Source of the DNA: Escherichia coli
Lineage (GTDB): Bacteria > Pseudomonadota > Gammaproteobacteria > Enterobacterales > Enterobacteriaceae
DNA length: 64,000 nucleotides
NCBI RefSeq assembly: GCF_002854065.1
Contig: NZ_CP024147.1
Direction: 5' to 3' (one strand)
In this document: positions 16,675 through 58,313 of the stretch, in pieces
Position numbering within the stretch: the first letter of the stretch is position 1
How the letters are laid out: every line of letters begins with the position of its first letter
The notes under the pieces: model-generated
What the model saw: the letters and a program-made list of their open reading frames with translations, nothing else
Told to the model about the DNA's origin: nothing
Database searches by the model: none
Translations under genes and position numbers: made by a program

Positions 16675-17001
16675 ATGATGAAAAGAACATTACTCATAGC
16701 TGTATGGGCCATTGGCCTGATGAGCGACAGTGCAATGGCTTTAACCCTGAACGAAGCCAGAAGTCAGGGGCGGGTAGGTGAAACGCTTAACGGTTACCTG
16801 GTGGCGCTACAAACGGATGCCGAAACACAGGCATTAGTAAAAGATATTAATGAAGCTCGTAACCATAGTTATCAACAACTGGCAAAGCAAAATAATGTAT
16901 CCACTAAAGAGATAGCCAAACTGGCTGGACAAAAGCTTGTTGCTCGCGCGAAGTCGGGGCAATATGTTCAGGGAATTAATGGTAAATGGTTGCGCAAATA
17001 A
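16675..17001 (+). CDS. ydbL: Periplasmic protein YdbL (DUF1318)
   Basis: 108 aa from MMKRTLLIAVWAIGLMSDSAMA (signal peptide); start 5 bp after the ynbE stop. Confidence 0.82.
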   Translation: MMKRTLLIAVWAIGLMSDSAMALTLNEARSQGRVGETLNGYLVALQTDAETQALVKDINEARNHSYQQLAKQNNVSTKEIAKLAGQKLVARAKSGQYVQGINGKWLRK

Positions 17002-17408
17002 ATTATAGTTGGCTACAAAATGTATCTATTAATGATCTTTTACAGTATTTAAACTGACGTTAGCATGCTTAATTACCGTGGGTATTTCTACAAAAACCTT
17101 ATATATCCTTCCCTTAAATAACAAATCATTACCAATATATATGTAATCACAAAATATATATGCAGCGTCAATGAATTATTAGTGTGTTTTTGTTTTTTGT
17201 CGTTAATTTTTAGATTGAAGTGAGTTTTTTGTGGAATATAATTCCATCAACTGTTTTTTTGTATGCTTTTACTTGCCTGATTTTAATATTGATTTTGTGA
17301 ATTATATAAGCATTTCTTTATTGCTTATTTCACTATGAATATTTACTACGATTTATCTTCAAATTCTGCATGGCTTGTTACGCACGGTCTAGATCTAAGG
17401 AATTTTAT

Positions 17409-20400
17409 ATGCAAAGGAAAAAATTATTGTCTGTTTGTGTTGCCATGGCGTTAAGTAGCCAGACATGGGCTGCGGATACTTCAATACCCGACTCAACCGA
17501 AAAAACACGTAAGTCCAGTAAGATAACATGTCCGGCAAATATTCATTCCCTGAGCAAAGAGCAGCTAGAAAATTTATCCGCGGAGTGCAGAGAAAATAAA
17601 GATAGTGCAGTTTTACCATGGGCAGCTGCAGGTCTTGCTGCAGTAGCTACGGGAATTGCTATATATACCTTAAGTGACGATGACAATCACCACCATAATA
17701 ACTCCCCAGTTCCGGATGATGGCGGTGATACGCCAGTTCCGCCAGACGACGGCGGTGATACGCCGGTTCCGCCAGATGACGGCGGTGATACGCCGGTTCC
17801 GCCAGATGACGGCGGTGATACGCCAGTTCCGCCAGATGACGGCGGTGATACGCCAGTTCCGCCAGATGACGGCGATGATACGCCGGTTCCGCCAGATGAC
17901 GGCGGTGATACGCCAGTTCCGCCAGATGACGGCGGTGATACGCCAGTTCCGCCAGATGACGGCGGTGATACGCCGGTTCCACCAGATGATGGCGGTGATA
18001 CGCCAGTTCCAGACGACGGCGGTGATACGCCTGTTCCGCCAGACGATGGTGGCGATACCCCGGTTAAACACGATCCTGTCGTCTATAAAAATGACGTAAC
18101 CTGGGATCAGGACGCGAAAACCGTCAAAATTCGCGAAACCACCTTTACCTACAGCCAAAATGCCGATGGGAGTTACACCTTAACCGCGCCTGATGGCCTG
18201 ACGACGATAGTCAAGGGCTGGACAGTCCATGACGACAGCAACACCGTCATCTTTGATGGCGTAAATACGGCAGGTGGCATCACCTGGAGCTACGACGATG
18301 ATGGGCTCATCCATATCACTAAAGAGGCCGGTGTCGTTGTTGATGGCACAACCGGAACTGCGATTGATTTTGGTAATGCGATCATCACCGATCAGGGCGG
18401 CAATACGGCGCTGAATGGCGGTACTGTCATGACGGTTGAGGGTGACAACATCACCCTCAACAACGACGGTAAAACGACCGCCATCGGCGAGGGTTCGGTC
18501 GTTGGTATCCTTACTGGTGACGATATCACTATCAATAACAACGGCGAGACGGAAGTTGACGGCGGTACCGCAGTAATCATCAATGGCGATAATGCTACGC
18601 TGAACACTGCGGGCGACTCGACCATCACCAATGGTGGTACGGGTAGCCTTATCAATGGCGATAATGCGCGGGTCGATAATCAAGGTACCATGAGCGTTGA
18701 CGGTGAGAATTCCACTGGCTCGAAAATTGTCGGTGACGGTGCCACCATCAAACAGGAAGGCGACTTATACGTAAGCGGTGGTGCGCACGGTATTGACGTT
18801 GACGGCAATGATACGTTCGTTAGCAACAAAGGTAATATTACGGTCATCGAAGATAACTCTATTGGCATGCTGCTTGATGGTGATGGCGTCAGCGTGATCA
18901 ACATGGGCGACCTCAATGTTGGTCAGGCCGCAGCGGGTGAAAATGCCATTGGCATTCAGATCGACGGTGATAATGCGACATTTGTTAACGTTGGTGATAT
19001 TTCCGCGACCAATGCCGGAACCGGTGTCAGCGTTGCTGGGGATAAAGCTAATATTTCACTCGCGGGTGGGTTAGACGTTGGGGATTTCTCCACCGGTCTT
19101 GATGTCTCTGGCAATAATAACAACATGACGCTGGCGACTTATGAGCTGAATGTGACAGGGCAAAAAGCGACGGGTGTTAATGTTTCGGGTGATGGCAATA
19201 CGATTGAAATCGCAGGCAGCATTCTGGTTGATAAAGATCAGAAAGCCGATAATGCGCAACCTTACTTCTTTAATCCCTCAACCGGCGTAAATATCAGCGG
19301 TAATAACAATGACGTCACGCTGGATGGTCAGTTAACCGTTGTTGCTGATAGCGAAACCACTACGCGTTCCTATGCAAGTTACGACGGTGCTCAGGAGCAC
19401 ATTGCGGGTATTGTTATTGCTGGCGATGACAATACCTTCACGCTTAATGGCGGTGTCCATTTTGTCGGTGAAAAAAATGTCATGGATGATGGCTCAAAAC
19501 CTGCCGCATCTCGTCGTGGTATCGGAGATACACCGCTTATGAGCGTTGATGGGCATTCCTCAGTCTACCTCAATGGTGAGTCAACCATCAGCGGTGAGTT
19601 CCCGCTGGGTTTCGAAAATCTCATTCAACTGAGTAATGGCGCGGAGCTGGAGATTGGCGCTGACGCAACGTTTGATATGAGTGATGTGGATTCTTTCACT
19701 TATTATTATCGTGTAGCGTTATCCACTATTAGTATTGATTATGGTGCGAAGGCGACAAACAACGGTGAAGTGGAACTGAAAAATATCGGTTTTGCGGCTG
19801 CCTGGAATAAAGATTCAACGGTAATCAATAACGGATCCATTGGCCTGGCGATGTACGATTTTGGTACCGACCCGGCACCAAAAGTCTTTGACGTTGAATA
19901 CGGTGGGATTGGCGTTAACAATGGTACCATGACCACCAAAATGATGAATCAGCACAGTGTGCTGAATTATCCGGCAGAGTGGAACTTGTCTGATGGTACC
20001 TCTTTCAATAACAAGGCATTAGGGCTGACAGGTATGCTTGCCAGCTACTCGTCATCCATTCTGAACGGCGAAACGGGCATTATTGATATGTATGGCCGTG
20101 GCAGTGTAGGGATGCTAGCCATCGATAAATCAACCGCGGATAACGAAGGGCAAATCACCCTGGATACGCTGTGGGTTGATGAAAATGATGAAACATCGCT
20201 GCGTAATAATGTTGCAAATAGCACGGCGAAAGATTTCGGTGTGGGAATGGCTTCAGGTACCGATGCCTATAATGGGGCATTAACTAAAGCCACGGCAACC
20301 AACCACGAGAATGGTGTGATTACTGTCTACAACGCCGGTGCGGGGATGGCGGCGTATGGGAATACTAATACGGTCATTAACCAGGGAACCATCAACCTGG

Positions 20401-23273
20401 AGAAAAATGAAAATTACAACGATTCTCTCGGTGTGAATAAACTCGTCGGCATGGCGGTTTATCACGAAGGCACCGCCATTAATGACCAGACAGGCGTAAT
20501 CAACATTAACGCGGAAAATGGTCAGGCATTCTATAACGATGGCACTGGGCTTATTATCAACTATGGCACAATTTGTACCTTTGGCGTTTGCCAGGGGGCC
20601 GATGAATATAATCCAACGGATAATTATATTGCCGATTTATATGATCATGGCGATGTATTAAGTTCTGCGGGTGAGACCGTATTATTATCGTCAGGTGCGA
20701 TTATCAACGGGGATGTCACCAGTGCGGGTGCTGTTAAAAATGGAACGATCAGGATACTCGAAAATGGTGCGCTGGTTAACGAGTCGAGCGGAACCATTAG
20801 CTCAGCCATCGTCGTGAATGAAGGCGGTGCGTTAACCAATGAAGGTGTATTGAACACGGTGACTCTGGAAGGAGGAACCTTCAATAACAACGGAACGCTT
20901 AATGACGTCGTAAAAATTGAGAAAAACAGCAACGCGGTAATTAATAACACCGGTTCCCTGTCAACTTTACAACTTCACGATGGTACGGTGAATAACAGCG
21001 GTATTGCGTCGGCGCGCGTTAACGCTCAGGGCGATGCGGTATTCAATAACCTTGCAGGCGGCGAGGCGCGTAAAGGCGCGATTCTCTATAACTCTGCGGT
21101 AGTGAATAACGCGGGTACCTGGAAAATGGGTTATCAGGATGAAAACAACAATGCCGGGACGCTGGATATTGACGATAAGTCAACGTTCAACAACAGCGGC
21201 AAACTCATCCTTGATAACAGCAAAAACGCCATTCGCTTCCAGGGCAGCAATGCTAACGCCACGTTATATAACACCGGTGAAATGACGCTGGATGCCGCAT
21301 TAGGTGCGGGCGCTATTCACTACGACGATGGCGCCAGCCAGTTTATTAACAAGGGCGTGGTGGATGCGAAAGTCACCGTGGCGGTAAGTACTGCCGGTGC
21401 GACAGAAAGCGATGCCTTCTTGTGGAACCAGGATGGCGGGGTAATTAACTTCGATAAAGACAACGCCAGCGCGGTTAAATTCACCCACAACAACTATGTT
21501 GCTCTCAACGATGGTGTAATGAACATCAGCGGCAACAACGCCGTGGCGATGGAAGGCGATAAAAACGCACAGCTGGTTAACAACGGTGTTATCAATCTCG
21601 GTACCGAAGGCACCACCGATACCGGATTGACTGGTATGCAACTGGATGCCAATGCCACCGCCGATGCGGTAATTGAGAACAACGGCACGATCAATATTTT
21701 TGCTAACGACTCGTTTGCGTTCAGCGTACTGGGCACAGAAGGTCATATCGTTAACAACGGTACGGTGGTGATTGCCGACGGCGTGACTGGTTCGGGGTTG
21801 ATTAAGCAGGGCGACAGCGTGAATGTGGAAGGGGTGAACGGCAACAGCGGTAACAATACCGAAGTGCATTACACCGACTACACGTTGCCGGACATGCCAA
21901 GCTCTTACACCACTTCACCTTTCAGTGAAACGACTGATAGCGGTAGTAGCGATGGCAGCAGTAACAATCTTAACGGCTATATCGTCGGTACCAACGTTGA
22001 TGGCAGCGCCGGTAAACTGAAGGTCAACAACGCCAGCATGAATGGTGTCGGGATCAACACCGGTTTCGCCGCCGGTACGGCAGACACCACGGTCAGTTTC
22101 GACAACGTGGTGGAAGGCATCAACCTGACCGACGCCGATGCCATCACCTCAACGTCCGTGGTATGGACCGCCAAAGGCAGCACCGATGCCAGCGGCAACG
22201 TTGACGTCATCATGAGCAAAAACGCCTACACCGATGTGGCGACCGATGCTTCGGTGAACGATGTGGCGAAGGTACTGGATGCGGGTTACACCAATAACGA
22301 GCTGTATACCAGCCTGAACGTGGGCACCACTGCTGAACTGAATAGCGCCCTGAAGCAGGTGAGCGGTAGCCAGGCGACCACGGTATTCCGTGAAGCGCGT
22401 GTGTTAAGCAACCGCTTCAGCATGCTGGCGGATGCCGCGCCGAAGGTGGGTAACGGTCTGGCGTTCAACGTTGTTGCGAAAGGCGATCCACGTGCCGAGT
22501 TAGGTAATAATACCGAATACGACATGCTGGCATTGCGTAAAACCATCGACCTGAGCGAAAGCCAGACGATGAGTCTGGAGTACGGTATCGCTCGTCTCGA
22601 TGGTGATGGTGCGCAGAAAGCGGGTGGTAATGGCGTCACAGGTGGTTATAGCCAGTTCTTTGGCCTGAAACATCAGATGTCCTTCGACAACGGCATGAAC
22701 TGGAATAACGCATTGCGTTATGACGTTCACAACCTTGACAGTAGCCGTTCGATTGCATTTAGCAACACAAACAAAACGGCTGATACCGACGTGAAGCAGC
22801 AGTACCTGGAGTTCCGCAGCGAAGGGGCGAAGACTTTCGAACCGAGCGAAGGACTGAAGGTTACGCCATATGCGGGTGTAAAACTGCGTCACTCGCTGGA
22901 AGGCGGCTATCAGGAGCGCAATGCCGGAGACTTTAACCTGAGCATGAACAGCGGCAGCGAAACGGCGGTGGACAGCATCGTCGGGCTGAAACTGGACTAC
23001 GCAGGGAAAGGCGGCTGGAGCGCGAATGCGACGCTGGAAGGCGGGCCGAACCTGAGCTACAGCAAGAGCCAGCGCACGGCAAGCCTTGCAGGGGCAGGCA
23101 GCCAGCACTTTAACGTCGATGACGGTCAGAAGGGCGGCGGTATCAACAGCCTGGCGAGCGTCGGCGTGAAGTACAGTAGCAAAGAAAGTTCGCTGAATCT
23201 GGATGCGTATCACTGGAAAGAGGACGGCATCAGCGACAAAGGCGTGATGCTGAACTTTAAGAAAACGTTCTAA
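17409..23273 (+). CDS. ydbA: Autotransporter (type Va) adhesin-like protein YdbA, apparently intact
   Basis: About 1954 aa: signal peptide MQRKKLLSVCVAMALSSQTWA, PPDDGGDTPV tandem repeats, long Gly/Asn/Thr-rich beta-helix passenger, C-terminal beta-barrel ending ...MLNFKKTF. Confidence 0.85.
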   Translation: MQRKKLLSVCVAMALSSQTWAADTSIPDSTEKTRKSSKITCPANIHSLSKEQLENLSAECRENKDSAVLPWAAAGLAAVATGIAIYTLSDDDNHHHNNSPVPDDGGDTPVPPDDGGDTPVPPDDGGDTPVPPDDGGDTPVPPDDGGDTPVPPDDGDDTPVPPDDGGDTPVPPDDGGDTPVPPDDGGDTPVPPDDGGDTPVPDDGGDTPVPPDDGGDTPVKHDPVVYKNDVTWDQDAKTVKIRETTFTYSQNADGSYTLTAPDGLTTIVKGWTVHDDSNTVIFDGVNTAGGITWSYDDDGLIHITKEAGVVVDGTTGTAIDFGNAIITDQGGNTALNGGTVMTVEGDNITLNNDGKTTAIGEGSVVGILTGDDITINNNGETEVDGGTAVIINGDNATLNTAGDSTITNGGTGSLINGDNARVDNQGTMSVDGENSTGSKIVGDGATIKQEGDLYVSGGAHGIDVDGNDTFVSNKGNITVIEDNSIGMLLDGDGVSVINMGDLNVGQAAAGENAIGIQIDGDNATFVNVGDISATNAGTGVSVAGDKANISLAGGLDVGDFSTGLDVSGNNNNMTLATYELNVTGQKATGVNVSGDGNTIEIAGSILVDKDQKADNAQPYFFNPSTGVNISGNNNDVTLDGQLTVVADSETTTRSYASYDGAQEHIAGIVIAGDDNTFTLNGGVHFVGEKNVMDDGSKPAASRRGIGDTPLMSVDGHSSVYLNGESTISGEFPLGFENLIQLSNGAELEIGADATFDMSDVDSFTYYYRVALSTISIDYGAKATNNGEVELKNIGFAAAWNKDSTVINNGSIGLAMYDFGTDPAPKVFDVEYGGIGVNNGTMTTKMMNQHSVLNYPAEWNLSDGTSFNNKALGLTGMLASYSSSILNGETGIIDMYGRGSVGMLAIDKSTADNEGQITLDTLWVDENDETSLRNNVANSTAKDFGVGMASGTDAYNGALTKATATNHENGVITVYNAGAGMAAYGNTNTVINQGTINLEKNENYNDSLGVNKLVGMAVYHEGTAINDQTGVININAENGQAFYNDGTGLIINYGTICTFGVCQGADEYNPTDNYIADLYDHGDVLSSAGETVLLSSGAIINGDVTSAGAVKNGTIRILENGALVNESSGTISSAIVVNEGGALTNEGVLNTVTLEGGTFNNNGTLNDVVKIEKNSNAVINNTGSLSTLQLHDGTVNNSGIASARVNAQGDAVFNNLAGGEARKGAILYNSAVVNNAGTWKMGYQDENNNAGTLDIDDKSTFNNSGKLILDNSKNAIRFQGSNANATLYNTGEMTLDAALGAGAIHYDDGASQFINKGVVDAKVTVAVSTAGATESDAFLWNQDGGVINFDKDNASAVKFTHNNYVALNDGVMNISGNNAVAMEGDKNAQLVNNGVINLGTEGTTDTGLTGMQLDANATADAVIENNGTINIFANDSFAFSVLGTEGHIVNNGTVVIADGVTGSGLIKQGDSVNVEGVNGNSGNNTEVHYTDYTLPDMPSSYTTSPFSETTDSGSSDGSSNNLNGYIVGTNVDGSAGKLKVNNASMNGVGINTGFAAGTADTTVSFDNVVEGINLTDADAITSTSVVWTAKGSTDASGNVDVIMSKNAYTDVATDASVNDVAKVLDAGYTNNELYTSLNVGTTAELNSALKQVSGSQATTVFREARVLSNRFSMLADAAPKVGNGLAFNVVAKGDPRAELGNNTEYDMLALRKTIDLSESQTMSLEYGIARLDGDGAQKAGGNGVTGGYSQFFGLKHQMSFDNGMNWNNALRYDVHNLDSSRSIAFSNTNKTADTDVKQQYLEFRSEGAKTFEPSEGLKVTPYAGVKLRHSLEGGYQERNAGDFNLSMNSGSETAVDSIVGLKLDYAGKGGWSANATLEGGPNLSYSKSQRTASLAGAGSQHFNVDDGQKGGGINSLASVGVKYSSKESSLNLDAYHWKEDGISDKGVMLNFKKTF
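17706..18064 (+). repeat. About 12 tandem copies of a 30-bp repeat (one 27-bp unit) encoding PPDDGGDTPV within ydbA
   Basis: Near-identical head-to-tail units GATGACGGCGGTGATACGCCAGTTCCGCCA with occasional wobble changes; one unit encodes GDDTPV. The mirror-image ORFs in the track here are repeat artefacts. Confidence 0.9.
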
Positions 23274-24399: not shown

Positions 24400-24416
24400 A
24401 ATGGCATGGAGTGCAT

Positions 24417-25715
24417 ATGTTTAAGCCCAGGATTTGCAGCTGGATAGGTTTACTTCCCCTGTTTATGCTGAGTCTTCCAGTACAGGCGGAACTTCGATGC
24501 GTTGCAAATGCAGTTGATATTGAACCTTTTTTTTCTGCGGCTACCGCTGAAGATAAACAACAAGTTGAACAAGCTATCAACAGTAGCGTGAATCTTGTCC
24601 CCTTCGGTTTATCTGCATCGGACTGGAAAGTGCATCGTGGCGATTTAGTGGTAGAAGGTAATATAGAGAGTAATCAAAAATTGATTGTTCTTGGCAATTT
24701 GACAGTCAAAGGTAATATTTCCACTTTCTCTCTTTCTAATCCATGGGTTATTCTCGGTAACGTGACGGCAACGAATATAGTTACGGATTCACCACTGTTA
24801 ATTACCGGTTCGATAAATGCAAGTGGACTGGTATTTATCGACTCATATTACGATAATCCGTCTACGATTAAGGGGAGTATTAATGCGCGCGGGATATTTA
24901 TCAATGACATAATTGCACCTGTTGTTGCGTCTTCGACAAATAGTGAATTCATGGTCCGTGCGAGTGACAAAAATGACACTGAAAATGTCAAAAAAGCGCT
25001 GATGATAATAAATCCTGATGCATATTATTGGGGTCTAATAAATGATGAAGATGCTCTGAAAGAAATTTTTAAGCGAAGCAATATTCGCATGGCAGGGAAT
25101 GTCTGTAATCAGATGAAAAAAGAAGCGCTGTTTCGCCCTAAGCCTTCTCCTGAGTTAGTGCAGGAATTGCAAATGCTGGATGAAGGCAACGTTGCTGCAT
25201 TTGAAGGACGAGATATTGCGACATTTGATCTTGCCATAATGCGAACTCTCCCAAGGCTTAAAGGAATTTCAGCTAACCTACGCAAACAACTTATTAATAG
25301 CAATGATGGACAAACGATTGCAAGTATGGCGAGATATATGCCTGACAATGAGATTCTGGAGTTGACCGATCAGCAATTGGGTTACCAGCCTGTTGTTCTG
25401 GGGTTGCTCGACCGTGAACCGCTCTCTGTCGAAATAATGACGCGAATGAGTCATCTACCTGATGGTGTCGGTCCGTTGAATCTTGCGCTACGTGAAAATC
25501 TCCCTCTGGATATCGTCATGACTCTGGCGAAAAGAGATTGGGATATGATCATTCAGGAGCTTTATAAAGATGCGTGGTTATTGCCCGAATCCATTATTGA
25601 TGGCTATATCCGCAGTGATGATTCCTCTATTCGTCAGGTCGGTGCTGGAGGACAACTCACCTACAATCAGGCAATGCAGTTGGCGAACGATTCATCAAAC
25701 GATGTTGTCACAAGC
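24417..25715 (+). pseudogene. ydbD: ydbD N-terminal fragment (disrupted by IS1)
   Basis: Signal-peptide ORF MFKPRICSWIGLLPLFMLSLPVQA... runs into IS1 at 25716 and stops 27 nt inside it; the two halves total about 770 codons, matching the K-12 YdbD length as I recall it. Confidence 0.8.
25707..25715. repeat. Left 9-bp target-site duplication GTCACAAGC of IS1 copy 2
   Basis: Identical 9-mer immediately flanks both ends of the IS1 (25707..25715 and 26484..26492). Confidence 0.9.
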
Positions 25716-25770
25716 GGTGATGCTGCCAACTTACTGATTTAGTGTATGATGGTGTTTTTGAGGTGCTCCA

Positions 25771-26046
25771 GTGGCTTCTGTTTCTATCAGCTGTCCCTCC
25801 TGTTCAGCTACTGACGGGGTGGTGCGTAACGGCAAAAGCACTGCCGGACATCAGCGCTATCTCTGCTCTCACTGCCGTAAAACATGGCAACTGCAGTTCA
25901 CTTACACCGCTTCTCAACCCGGTACGCACCAGAAAATCATTGATATGGCCATGAATGGCGTTGGATGCCGGGCAACCGCCCGCATTATGGGCGTTGGCCT
26001 CAACACGATTTTCCGCCATTTAAAAAACTCAGGCCGCAGTCGGTAA
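25771..26046 (+). CDS. insA: IS1 InsA
   Basis: 91-aa ORF identical to insA of copy 1. Confidence 0.93.
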
Positions 26047-26468
26047 CCTCGCGCATACAGCCGGGCAGTGACGTCATCGTCTGCGCGGAAATGGACGAAC
26101 AGTGGGGATACGTCGGGGCTAAATCGCGCCAGCGCTGGCTGTTTTACGCGTATGACAGTCTCCGGAAGACGGTTGTTGCGCACGTATTCGGTGAACGCAC
26201 TATGGCGACGCTGGGGCGTCTTATGAGCCTGCTGTCACCCTTTGACGTGGTGATATGGATGACGGATGGCTGGCCGCTGTATGAATCCCGCCTGAAGGGA
26301 AAGCTGCACGTAATCAGCAAGCGATATACGCAGCGAATTGAGCGGCATAACCTGAATCTGAGGCAGCACCTGGCACGGCTGGGACGGAAGTCGCTGTCGT
26401 TCTCAAAATCGGTGGAGCTGCATGACAAAGTCATCGGGCATTATCTGAACATAAAACACTATCAATAA
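25965..26468 (+). CDS. insB: IS1 InsB reading frame (InsAB' by -1 frameshift)
   Basis: 167-aa ORF; differs from copy 1 by one residue (S vs R). Confidence 0.9.
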
Positions 26469-26483
26469 GTTGGAGTCATTACC

Positions 26484-26492
26484 GTCACAAGC
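26484..26492. repeat. Right 9-bp target-site duplication GTCACAAGC of IS1 copy 2
   Basis: Direct repeat of 25707..25715. Confidence 0.9.
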
Positions 26493-27500
26493 TTAGCGTT
26501 AAAGCTGGCAGAGATGAAACACCATGGTCAATTGTTGCGGATGACGCCACAAGAGAGTGACAAAATAGCAGTATATTTATACCAAAAATTCGAGAATGAC
26601 GATGATCTAATAGGTGCGTTATTTTTAGCGTTGCCAGATAACTTACAGTTTAATTTTGTTAAAAGGATGGAGAAAAAATCCCCTGCCTACTTTTGCTGTC
26701 GGGATATGCAGATAATTCACTCTGACGCTGCTTTACAACGGTTATTGACACGTTTCAACGATCCTGAGGGGTGGAGTAATCTGGCGAAAAATCAGTATCT
26801 GAGCACGTCGATGAAACAAAAAATTTGGCAACGTGCTTTATCGCATCGGAAAAATAATCCCAAAGCAGATTCAGATGCATATGAAACCAGCGCTGATATG
26901 ATTTTGTCTGAGCTTATCAGCTACGGTGAAGTTGATGACCAGATGCTATTAAATGCCACCTCTCTGATACGTTCGGACGACTGGGACTTTTTAGAGAGAG
27001 CATTAATTAGTTGGGATAATTTACCCGCTGTTGTTCTCAAGGAATTACAGCAAAACACGCCACGCAATGATATTTGGGCGAAGTTTTTTCTGAGGCAGGA
27101 AAACAGTTCCCGTGCGCAGGTTAACGAAGCGTTACGTGTTTATTATGCACTAGACCCCGATGCGTTAGCACAACTGGATGTACTGGCAAAACAACCGGAT
27201 CGTATATGGTGGAGTACACTGGCGAAAAGCAATCTCACATTTTTCAAGTTCGGCGCACTTAACAACCGCCACACACCGCCTGCGGTACTGGCGGCAGAAA
27301 TTGATCCCGAGTGGTGGATTGTGGCGATGAATAATCCCCGTTTTCCAGTTGATGTATTAAAGGCGAGGCTGAAACGTGATCCTTTGCTGGCGTTAGAGCT
27401 TGTTAACCCTGAACTGGATTTAGTTCGCCAGCTGGCGCTTAACGGTAAGACGCGCGCAATACGGGAACAAGCGATGAGAAAACTTGATGAGTTGTATTGA
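26484..27500 (+). pseudogene. ydbD: ydbD C-terminal fragment (disrupted by IS1)
   Basis: Open frame continues from the duplicated target site to the stop at 27500 (ORF track shows it from an internal Met at 26514). Confidence 0.8.
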
Positions 27501-39726: not shown

Positions 39727-39756
39727 AAAGAGGCGGAGGTTTTTTCCCTCCGCCTG
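39727..39756. terminator. Hairpin between the convergent aldA and gapC (possible bidirectional terminator)
   Basis: AGGCGGAGG-ttttttc-CCTCCGCCT perfect 9-bp stem; the U-tract context is atypical, so function is uncertain. Confidence 0.4.
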
Positions 39757-39762
39757 TGCGCG

Positions 39763-40764
39763 TCAGAGTTTAGCGAATTTTTCGAGGGTGCGAATAAGCT
39801 GCGTGACGAAGCCATATTCGTTATCGTACCAGGCGACCGTTTTCACCAGTTGTAAATCGCCCACGGCGGTAATTTCCGTTTGCGTGGCATCAAACACTGA
39901 ACCGAAATGGCTGCCAATGATATCGGAAGAGACTATTTCTTCATCGGTATAACCAAATGACTCGTTATTGGTGGTTGCTTGTTTAAGTGCGTTATTCACC
40001 TCTTCGGCAGTCACTTTTTTTCCGAGAATGGACACCAGCTCAGTGACCGAACCTGTTTTCACCGGTACGCGTTGCGCATGACCTTTCAGTTTGCCGCTCA
40101 GTTCCGGTATCACCAGACCAATGGCTTTTGCCGCCCCCGTAGTGTGGGGAATGATATTTTCTGCCGCGGCGCGTGAAGCACGTAAATCTTTACCACGCGG
40201 GCCATCCACCAGTGACTGGGTGCCAGTATAGGCATGAATGGTCGTCATCGTGCCGACTTCTATCCCGAAACTGTCATGCAAGGCTTTGGCCATCGGCGCA
40301 AGACAGTTAGTAGTGCATGATGCCACGGAAACAATGGTGTCGTTGCCATCCAGAGTGTCGTCATTGACGTTATAAACGATAGTTTTCATTTCACCGGCAG
40401 GGGCGGAAATCAACACCTTCTTCGCGCCAGCATCAAGATGCGCCTGCGATTTCTCGGCGGAGGTATAAAAGCCAGTACATTCGACAATGATTTCTGTACC
40501 TTTCGCTTTCCACGGAATATTTTTAGCCTCTTTTTCGGCGTAAACCGCGATACTTTTCCCATTAACGATAAGTGAATCTTCCGTAAAATCAACGCTCCAG
40601 GGGAACGGTCCGTAGTTTGAATCATGTTTCAGCAGGTAGGCGAGAATTTTTGGAGAAGTGAGATCATTAATAGCGACAACGTCTATGTTGCTTTTGACTT
40701 CAAGTAATCGACGCAACACCAGTCGACCGATACGACCAAAACCGTTAATACCAACTTTACTCAT
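39763..40764 (-). CDS. gapC: Glyceraldehyde-3-phosphate dehydrogenase GapC, intact reading frame
   Basis: 333-aa uninterrupted ORF with NAD-binding NGFGRIGR and catalytic [10 protein letters not shown] motifs. Confidence 0.85.
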
Positions 40765-40952
40765 GGTTTTCTCCTGTCAGGAACGTTCGGATGAAAATTG
40801 ATCCTTTCCAGGCTTAGACCAGGATGGCGGGATGGGCAATCTCCATTCTTACAGTGAAACGTAACGTACTGAAAACGGGTGAACAATATTTAATGAAATT
40901 TTGAGAAAAGCCCGTTATGTTAACGGAAAATTATGTTAAAGCAGGAAATGTT

Positions 40953-41557: not shown

Positions 41558-41727
41558 CGCCTATTATATTTATTTGTATGACAAATAAAACCATAATCCT
41601 TGCCCATACGTCCATCTGGCTTATTTTTAATCAATTCACCCGATCTTTGATCTCATCAACGGTATCAAAATAAACCAGCGTATAACGTTCAAATCGAACA
41701 TAAGATTCGATAAACCATGGAGGTTAT

Positions 41728-41901
41728 ATGAAAAAACTGGCACTTATTTTGTTTATGGGAACGCTTGTTTCCTTTTATGCCGATGCTGGGCGCAAACCCT
41801 GTTCTGGTTCGAAAGGGGGGATCTCACACTGTACGGCAGGCGGCAAATTTGTCTGTAATGATGGTTCTATTAGTGCCTCGAAAAAAACATGCACTAACTG
41901 A
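41728..41901 (+). CDS. ydcA: Small secreted protein YdcA
   Basis: 57-aa ORF MKKLALILFMGTLVSFYADAGRKPCSGSKGG... with signal peptide, preceded by GGAGG. Below the ORF-track cutoff. Confidence 0.75.
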   Translation: MKKLALILFMGTLVSFYADAGRKPCSGSKGGISHCTAGGKFVCNDGSISASKKTCTN

Positions 41902-41972
41902 AGTGTAAAAGGGGTGCCATGAGAAAATGAATCTGCTAGTCAGATGCGCGGGGAAAATCCCCGCGCTTGCCC

Positions 41973-42122
<150 letters not shown>

Positions 42123-42520
42123 AGCCTTTCTCCTTGCCGGATGGCGGGTAAGAGGCTAACATCTGAATTGCTTGGTTCATTCGTTGGCCTCGGTTGATAG
42201 AAATATCGGTCGGGGCCTTCGTCTTTCTGATTCCCGGTTAGCCTGAAAACAGAAAGTCTCAGGCACCCGTGAGCATCCTATGTGGTTTCCTTAGGGACGA
42301 AAATAATCACCTGACGAAATTGCGTGCTGTTTTCCAGAATTTTTCGTCATTCGGGTTAGCCAGTTTAACCATTCGTTACTCTCTTCATTCCAATGGCATT
42401 AATCTTCTCTGCAATAATTGTTGTAAAAATGTGACGCAAAGAGGCTTTTAGTCGTAAGTAATTACCGTCAAATGCCGATGACTATCTATCAGGAGTAAAC
42501 CTGGACGAGAGACAACGGTA

Positions 42521-57596: not shown

Positions 57597-57773
57597 GTGA
57601 AACAAAGCGAGTTCAGACGTTGGCTCGAATCTCAGGGCGTCGATGTAGCGAATGGCAGCAACCATTTGAAACTCAGGTTTCATGGGATGCGCAGTGTCAT
57701 GCCGCGTCACCCCTGCGATGAGATTAAAGAACCATTGCGTAAAGCAATCCTGAAACAACTCGGTTTGAGTTAA
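57597..57773 (+). CDS. hicA: HicA mRNA-interferase toxin (type II toxin-antitoxin)
   Basis: 58-codon ORF with GTG start, MKQSEFRRWLESQGVDVANGSNHLKLRFHGMRSVMPRHP...; below the ORF-track cutoff. Confidence 0.85.
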   Translation: MKQSEFRRWLESQGVDVANGSNHLKLRFHGMRSVMPRHPCDEIKEPLRKAILKQLGLS

Positions 57774-57797
57774 TCGCCAATTAAAAAGGTTAATGAC

Positions 57798-58235
<438 letters not shown>

Positions 58236-58313
58236 TTACAGTTAACGAAAAGTTGTCATTTTTAACAACTGATATAGACTGCCGAATCATCTGCACATAA
58301 TTACGATTCGATA

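Follow-up and report, generated by a model that had tools for sequence, protein, structure and literature searches.

An uninterrupted gapC in an Escherichia coli genome, probably encoding a second type I glyceraldehyde-3-phosphate dehydrogenase, and the natural minority lineage of the K-12 pseudogene

The window, i.e., the whole 64-kb stretch of E. coli DNA under study, carries gapC, a gene for a glyceraldehyde-3-phosphate dehydrogenase (GAPDH), on its minus strand (Table 1). A preliminary description of this DNA had claimed an uninterrupted frame of 333 codons at this place, and its ends are confirmed to the nucleotide, with no internal stop in either the list of open reading frames or the sequence itself. 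The AGGAG upstream of the start codon would act as the ribosome-binding site of gapC, and the GC content of the gene is 47.8%, versus 49.6% for the window. In the closest genome, CUWW06 (wastewater, Thailand), the same frame is annotated as "gap: type I glyceraldehyde-3-phosphate dehydrogenase". The window is near-clonal with CUWW06, showing seven differences in 37 kb, one of which falls in gapC (window position 40497) and changes Ala90 to Thr.

Table 1. Features of the gapC locus, in window coordinates
Feature	Position	Strand	Description
gapC coding sequence	39763..40764	-	ATG start, 333 codons and TGA stop; type I NAD-dependent phosphorylating GAPDH
Putative Shine-Dalgarno AGGAG	40771..40775	-	6 nt 5' of the gapC ATG; read from the sequence (…CTGACAGGAGAAAACCATG)
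Codon 18	40711..40713	-	CGT (Arg) in the window; GGT (Gly) in the K-12 lineage
Codon 39	40648..40650	-	AAA (Lys) in the window; TAA (stop) in K-12; pairwise alignment
Codon 68	40561..40563	-	AAT (Asn); Asp in the common E. coli allele and in 7C5F
Codon 90	40495..40497	-	ACA (Thr); Ala in most alleles; sole difference from CUWW06 in the gapC region
Cys150 codon, catalytic	40315..40317	-	Residue check; invariant in 108/108 orthologs
His177 codon, catalytic base	40234..40236	-	Residue check; invariant among orthologs
A7 run, codons 246-248	40021..40027	-	A7 in the window; A6 in K-12, giving a -1 frameshift
GC-rich 9-bp hairpin followed by UCUUUC	39731..39755	-	Directly 3' of the gapC stop, between gapC and the convergent aldA
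gapC-cybB intergenic region, 188 nt	40765..40952		cybB and gap boundaries from the CUWW06 annotation

The location of the gene is conserved throughout the species. In a search with 1.4 kb around gapC as the query, 5417 of the 5426 complete E. coli genomes gave a match, with identities of 90-99.9%, in every case under a gene called "gap" with cybB and aldA on either side. The arrangement, with cybB divergent and aldA convergent, recurs in K-12, in CUWW06 and in 16 of 16 sampled genomes, which identifies the genes found there as gapC orthologs. The intergenic region shared with cybB, the presumed promoter region of gapC, differs from that of K-12 at 2 of its 188 nucleotides and is variable at 17 of the 188 sites across 18 strains; a consensus promoter scan of this region returned three sigma-70-like sites versus 1.9 expected by chance. 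On the other side of the gene, the hairpin after the stop codon has a predicted folding energy of -19.9 kcal/mol (z = -3.26), and none of 200 shuffled sequences folded as well. It came from this separate folding, as the terminator scan did not call it, and it is likely a terminator common to gapC and aldA. At window position 39748, in the part of the stem next to the loop, GGG is found where K-12 has GG (a 1-nt indel). Elsewhere, in L003 (strain 2013C-4081), gapC is intact and the annotation gives the adjoining aldA as a pseudogene with a frameshift.

Several other features were observed within the window. On the plus strand, positions 17370-23273 hold one uninterrupted frame of 1967 amino acids, of which the C-terminal ~640 residues match the model of the autotransporter adhesin BigA with 1077 bits, under its cut-off of 3400; by its position after ydbH/ynbE/ydbL, the product is a predicted ydbA-like autotransporter. 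The K-12 ydbA is a pseudogene interrupted by an insertion sequence, and this frame would be another case of a gene intact here and broken in K-12. Around positions 17000-17370, the ydbA-like frame comes straight after ydbL, while in K-12 the feaRB-tynA-paa cluster stands between the two, so that this cluster appears to be absent from the strain of the window. An IS1 element at ~25765-26500 (transposase match of 141.9 bits) splits a DUF2773/ydbD-like gene into the frames 24411-25742 and 26514-27500. CUWW06 has the same IS1, but some 8.4 kb on the left of the element is missing there, with ydbA, ydbC and the 5' portion of ydbD, and this suggests an IS1-adjacent deletion in CUWW06. There is probably a second IS1 copy at ~797-1500, where the left-end sequence of the element is found again at 797 and a frame at 997-1500, of 167 amino acids, equals the IS1 transposase frame at 25965-26468 in size. 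Mapping of the CUWW06 annotation placed a hokB type I toxin with a small yncP frame at ~41700-42200, and a hicAB type II toxin-antitoxin pair at ~57600-58250.

The family membership of the GapC protein was assessed against curated models. GapC scores 447.5 bits against TIGR01534, the model of type I GAPDH (EC 1.2.1.12), with a curated cut-off of 367.2, and the match spans residues 3-325 of the protein and positions 1-330 of the 330 in the profile; this score is far beyond chance. The GapA-type model PRK15425 gives 302.8 bits, below its cut-off of 662. The NAD-binding and catalytic motifs, which had been described as complete, are indeed so. The N-terminal dinucleotide-binding motif lies at residues 5-14 and includes the Rossmann GxGxxG (G8-F-G10-R11-I12-G13), with Asp34 as the acidic residue that favors NAD, and the motif around the catalytic cysteine (SCTTNC) lies at residues 148-157, with both C150 and H177 found at their places. 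All of the residues of the phosphate sites Ps and Pi (Thr180, Thr182, Arg232, Thr209-Gly210 and Ser149/Thr151) are present as well, and they are invariant among 108 orthologs with the exception of Gly210 (107 of 108). The same orthologs are invariant at R11, I12, D34, K78, S120 and N315, and R198 of GapC matches another residue invariant across all 108. Those first six are the NAD contacts of EcGAPDH1, an E. coli enzyme identical to GapC at 331 of 333 residues that was purified, assayed and crystallised (PMC8615399).

Scores for neighboring activities bear on whether GapC could have diverged in its main activity, for instance toward erythrose-4-phosphate dehydrogenase (E4PD) like Epd/GapB, or toward a non-glycolytic moonlighting role, and would thus not be a true second GAPDH. 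A precedent within the same species is Epd of E. coli, a GAPDH paralog whose substrate has changed, and the E4PD models do match GapC, with 277.6 bits for TIGR01532 and 280.2 bits for PRK13535. These values are, however, far under the respective cut-offs of 530.55 and 539, while that of TIGR01534 is passed. Moreover, the wild-type EcGAPDH1, which is 99.4% identical, turns over D-glyceraldehyde-3-phosphate (G3P), with measured KM and kcat and a KM of 0.73 mM for D-G3P, and its thioacyl intermediate with G3P was crystallised; in the same enzyme, the C150A substitution abolished the activity and H177A lowered it about 8000-fold (PMC8615399). We regard a changed activity as very improbable.

The preliminary description had given the K-12 locus as a split pseudogene, which holds: in the K-12 genome MG1655p, the syntenic "gap" coding sequence carries a pseudogene flag, with the note "frameshifted; internal stop". 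The alignment that had been proposed for finding the K-12 lesion located a stop at codon 39 (K39→stop), a 1-bp deletion in the A7 run and the substitution R18G, the latter at a position where all 108 of the full-length orthologs have arginine. Neither the codon 39 nonsense nor the -1 frameshift in the A run, the two marks of the K-12-type pseudogene, is found in the gapC of the window. The frequency of these lesions was estimated among the 5426 complete genomes with allele-specific 31-mers, in which each 28-nt megablast seed must cross the variant base, together with the annotations of 16 genomes drawn from the full length of the similarity ranking. The K-12 stop allele was found in 1154 genomes and the A6 frameshift allele in 1050; since the A7 run would be subject to BLAST low-complexity masking, the frequency of the intact A7 was derived by subtracting the A6 count, plus the sampling. 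The carriers include many laboratory derivatives of K-12, as well as isolates from human, pig, chicken, frog and river water. Among the 16 sampled genomes, gapC is annotated as intact in 14, the two others being C288 (human gut), where it is identical to that of K-12, and ES4 (frog-farm sediment), where only an internal stop is annotated. Based on the counts of the lesion alleles and on the 14 intact cases in the sample, the intact gapC is the norm in E. coli, and K-12 falls in a minority, a natural lineage that accounts for about 20%. Thus, the uninterrupted frame stood as first described, while the implied view of an intact gapC as a peculiarity of this strain had to be reversed.

Given that the ES4 gene carries R18G and the stop but retains the A7 run, the order of decay can be deduced, with R18G and K39→stop preceding the frameshift. 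As the K-12 lesions are common to about one-fifth of the genomes, including wild isolates, and have a definable order, this argues against an origin purely in laboratory domestication. In addition, gapC was lost independently of the K-12 lineage, through an IS1 insertion in AHM9C61I and a truncation in SCPM-O-B-7615. The loss in about one-fifth of E. coli genomes implies that the gene is dispensable in some lifestyles.

Where the gene is intact, its sequence is strongly constrained. Among 13 distinct intact E. coli alleles, the mean dN is 0.0039 and the mean dS 0.102 (ratio of 0.038), with ~68 synonymous and ~9 nonsynonymous segregating sites; the intact alleles are under strong purifying selection, with a dN/dS of about 0.04. 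The 90%-identity cluster of the E. coli GapC has 4797 member sequences, and full-length orthologs of 332-333 amino acids, with 86-96% identity, are found in E. albertii, Citrobacter, Trabulsiella, Klebsiella oxytoca/grimontii, Kluyvera, Yokenella and others. A recent horizontal acquisition of gapC, as claimed in PMC1796617, is unsupported, considering this wide distribution of orthologs in Enterobacteriaceae and the unremarkable GC content of the gene.

A disabling active-site substitution, named in the preliminary description as what could undo its claim, was searched for and none was found at the level of the sequence. The two residues by which the window departs from the common allele, Asn68 and Thr90, might still be suspected of crippling the enzyme despite the intact frame, the latter in particular. 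No complete genome was found to combine them, the best match differing by one nucleotide, and position 90 presumably precedes the strand that bears NAD-contacting residues in GAPDHs. Taken singly, however, both are natural variants, as the 31-mer with T90 occurs in 151 genomes and that with N68 in 221, and orthologs tolerate Ala (97), Val (9) or Thr (2) at position 90 and Asp (95) or Asn (13) at position 68. Neither position is among the listed NAD or phosphate contacts of EcGAPDH1 (PMC8615399). D68N and A90T thus look like minority polymorphisms at naturally variable positions that give no hint of a disabling change in the active site, and we see hardly any chance that they inactivate GapC.

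Evidence on expression comes from the literature. According to PMC2949598, which cites Espinosa-Urgel & Kolter (1998), environmental isolates have an intact gapC that is expressed preferentially in fresh water, while laboratory strains have kept the environment-specific activation of the gapC promoter and carry truncating mutations. In K-12, a ChIP-seq peak of the sigma-S RNA polymerase was reported at the gapC_1/cybB intergenic region (PMC4447067). Also in K-12, gapC_1 is listed at 5.6-fold among the genes altered in chemostats of regulator mutants, where a mark refers to a previous study of RpoS (PMC4512719), and from the layout of the table we read this value as belonging to the ΔrpoS column. 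These reports have to be weighed against the possibility of an intact but cryptic gene, with no meaningful expression or contribution to GAPDH activity, and decaying as it did in K-12. That the promoter scan was no better than chance, that about 20% of the genomes carry the K-12 lesions, and that the gene was also lost independently in AHM9C61I and SCPM-O-B-7615 would all fit such a gene. A dN/dS of about 0.04 and active-site residues invariant across genera are, in turn, incompatible with a long silence, and a cryptic state is hard to reconcile with the sigma-S RNA polymerase on the promoter region, with a transcript detected even in K-12 (PMC4512719) and with the fresh-water expression reported in PMC2949598. 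A cryptic gapC is therefore considered improbable, though less so than a changed activity or crippling substitutions.

The preliminary description had proposed that this strain may express a second GAPDH alongside GapA. That the second GAPDH is functional is strongly supported, if indirectly, since an enzyme identical at 331 of 333 residues has been assayed, the gene is under purifying selection, and an intact and expressed state has been published for environmental isolates. We are thus highly confident in regarding gapC as an ordinary, functional and conditionally expressed second type I GAPDH. GapC would convert G3P, NAD+ and Pi to 1,3-bisphosphoglycerate and NADH, with catalysis predicted to go through a thioacyl intermediate at Cys150 and with His177 as the catalytic base, and it would act as a second isozyme beside GapA, encoded at the conserved cybB/gapC/aldA locus. 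Transcription would most likely start from a condition-dependent promoter, for which the published work points to RpoS dependence and a preference for fresh water; that gapC is transcribed and translated in the strain of the window, and under such conditions, is what we infer from these data.

Much of this is already published, namely gapC itself, the pseudogene status in K-12, the integrity in natural isolates, the structure and the kinetics. The contrast between environmental isolates and K-12 has been in print since 1998 (Espinosa-Urgel & Kolter, as cited in PMC2949598). The only addition made here is modest and quantitative, in that the K-12 lesions, counted in 1154 and 1050 of the 5426 genomes, stem from a natural sublineage and their order can be identified. 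At gapC, K-12 misrepresents the species, and metabolic models and assumptions on the essentiality of gapA do not transfer to strains like the present one, nor do engineering designs in which gapC serves as a "neutral pseudogene" for integration. Taken together, the data also allow a more speculative reading, which we put forward tentatively and hold to be possible rather than probable: the status of gapC might be an ecological marker, the gene serving as a sigma-S-dependent isozyme outside the host (cold, fresh water, starvation), with the loss in K-12 as a stepwise natural decay and not a product of laboratory domestication. If this were true, the decay of gapC in about one-fifth of the genomes, including many wild human, pig, chicken and river isolates, would mark a lineage in which selection for life outside the host is relaxed.

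Among the closest known systems is EcGAPDH1 (PDB 7C5F, 7C5H, 7C7K and others; Biomolecules 2021), the 331 identities extending over the full length. It shares with GapC the same Cys150, His177, NAD contacts and phosphate-site residues, and GapC differs from it by D68N and A90T; the crystallised construct has in addition a 19-residue N-terminal tag extension, for a chain of 352 amino acids. With the gapC of environmental isolates (Espinosa-Urgel & Kolter 1998, as cited in PMC2949598), the gene of the window shares the locus and the intact state. The K-12 pseudogene (gapC_1/gapC_2, b1417/b1416) occupies the same position between cybB and aldA; over 1.4 kb the nucleotide identity is 98.3%, and the upstream region is near-identical. 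It carries, however, R18G, K39→stop and the -1 frameshift of the A7 run, none of which is present in the window. GapA, the housekeeping GAPDH of E. coli, belongs to the same family and has the same type I chemistry, but it is encoded at a different locus and is not the ortholog of GapC. Finally, the erythrose-4-phosphate dehydrogenase Epd/GapB shares the fold and the superfamily, while GapC remains under the E4PD cut-offs.
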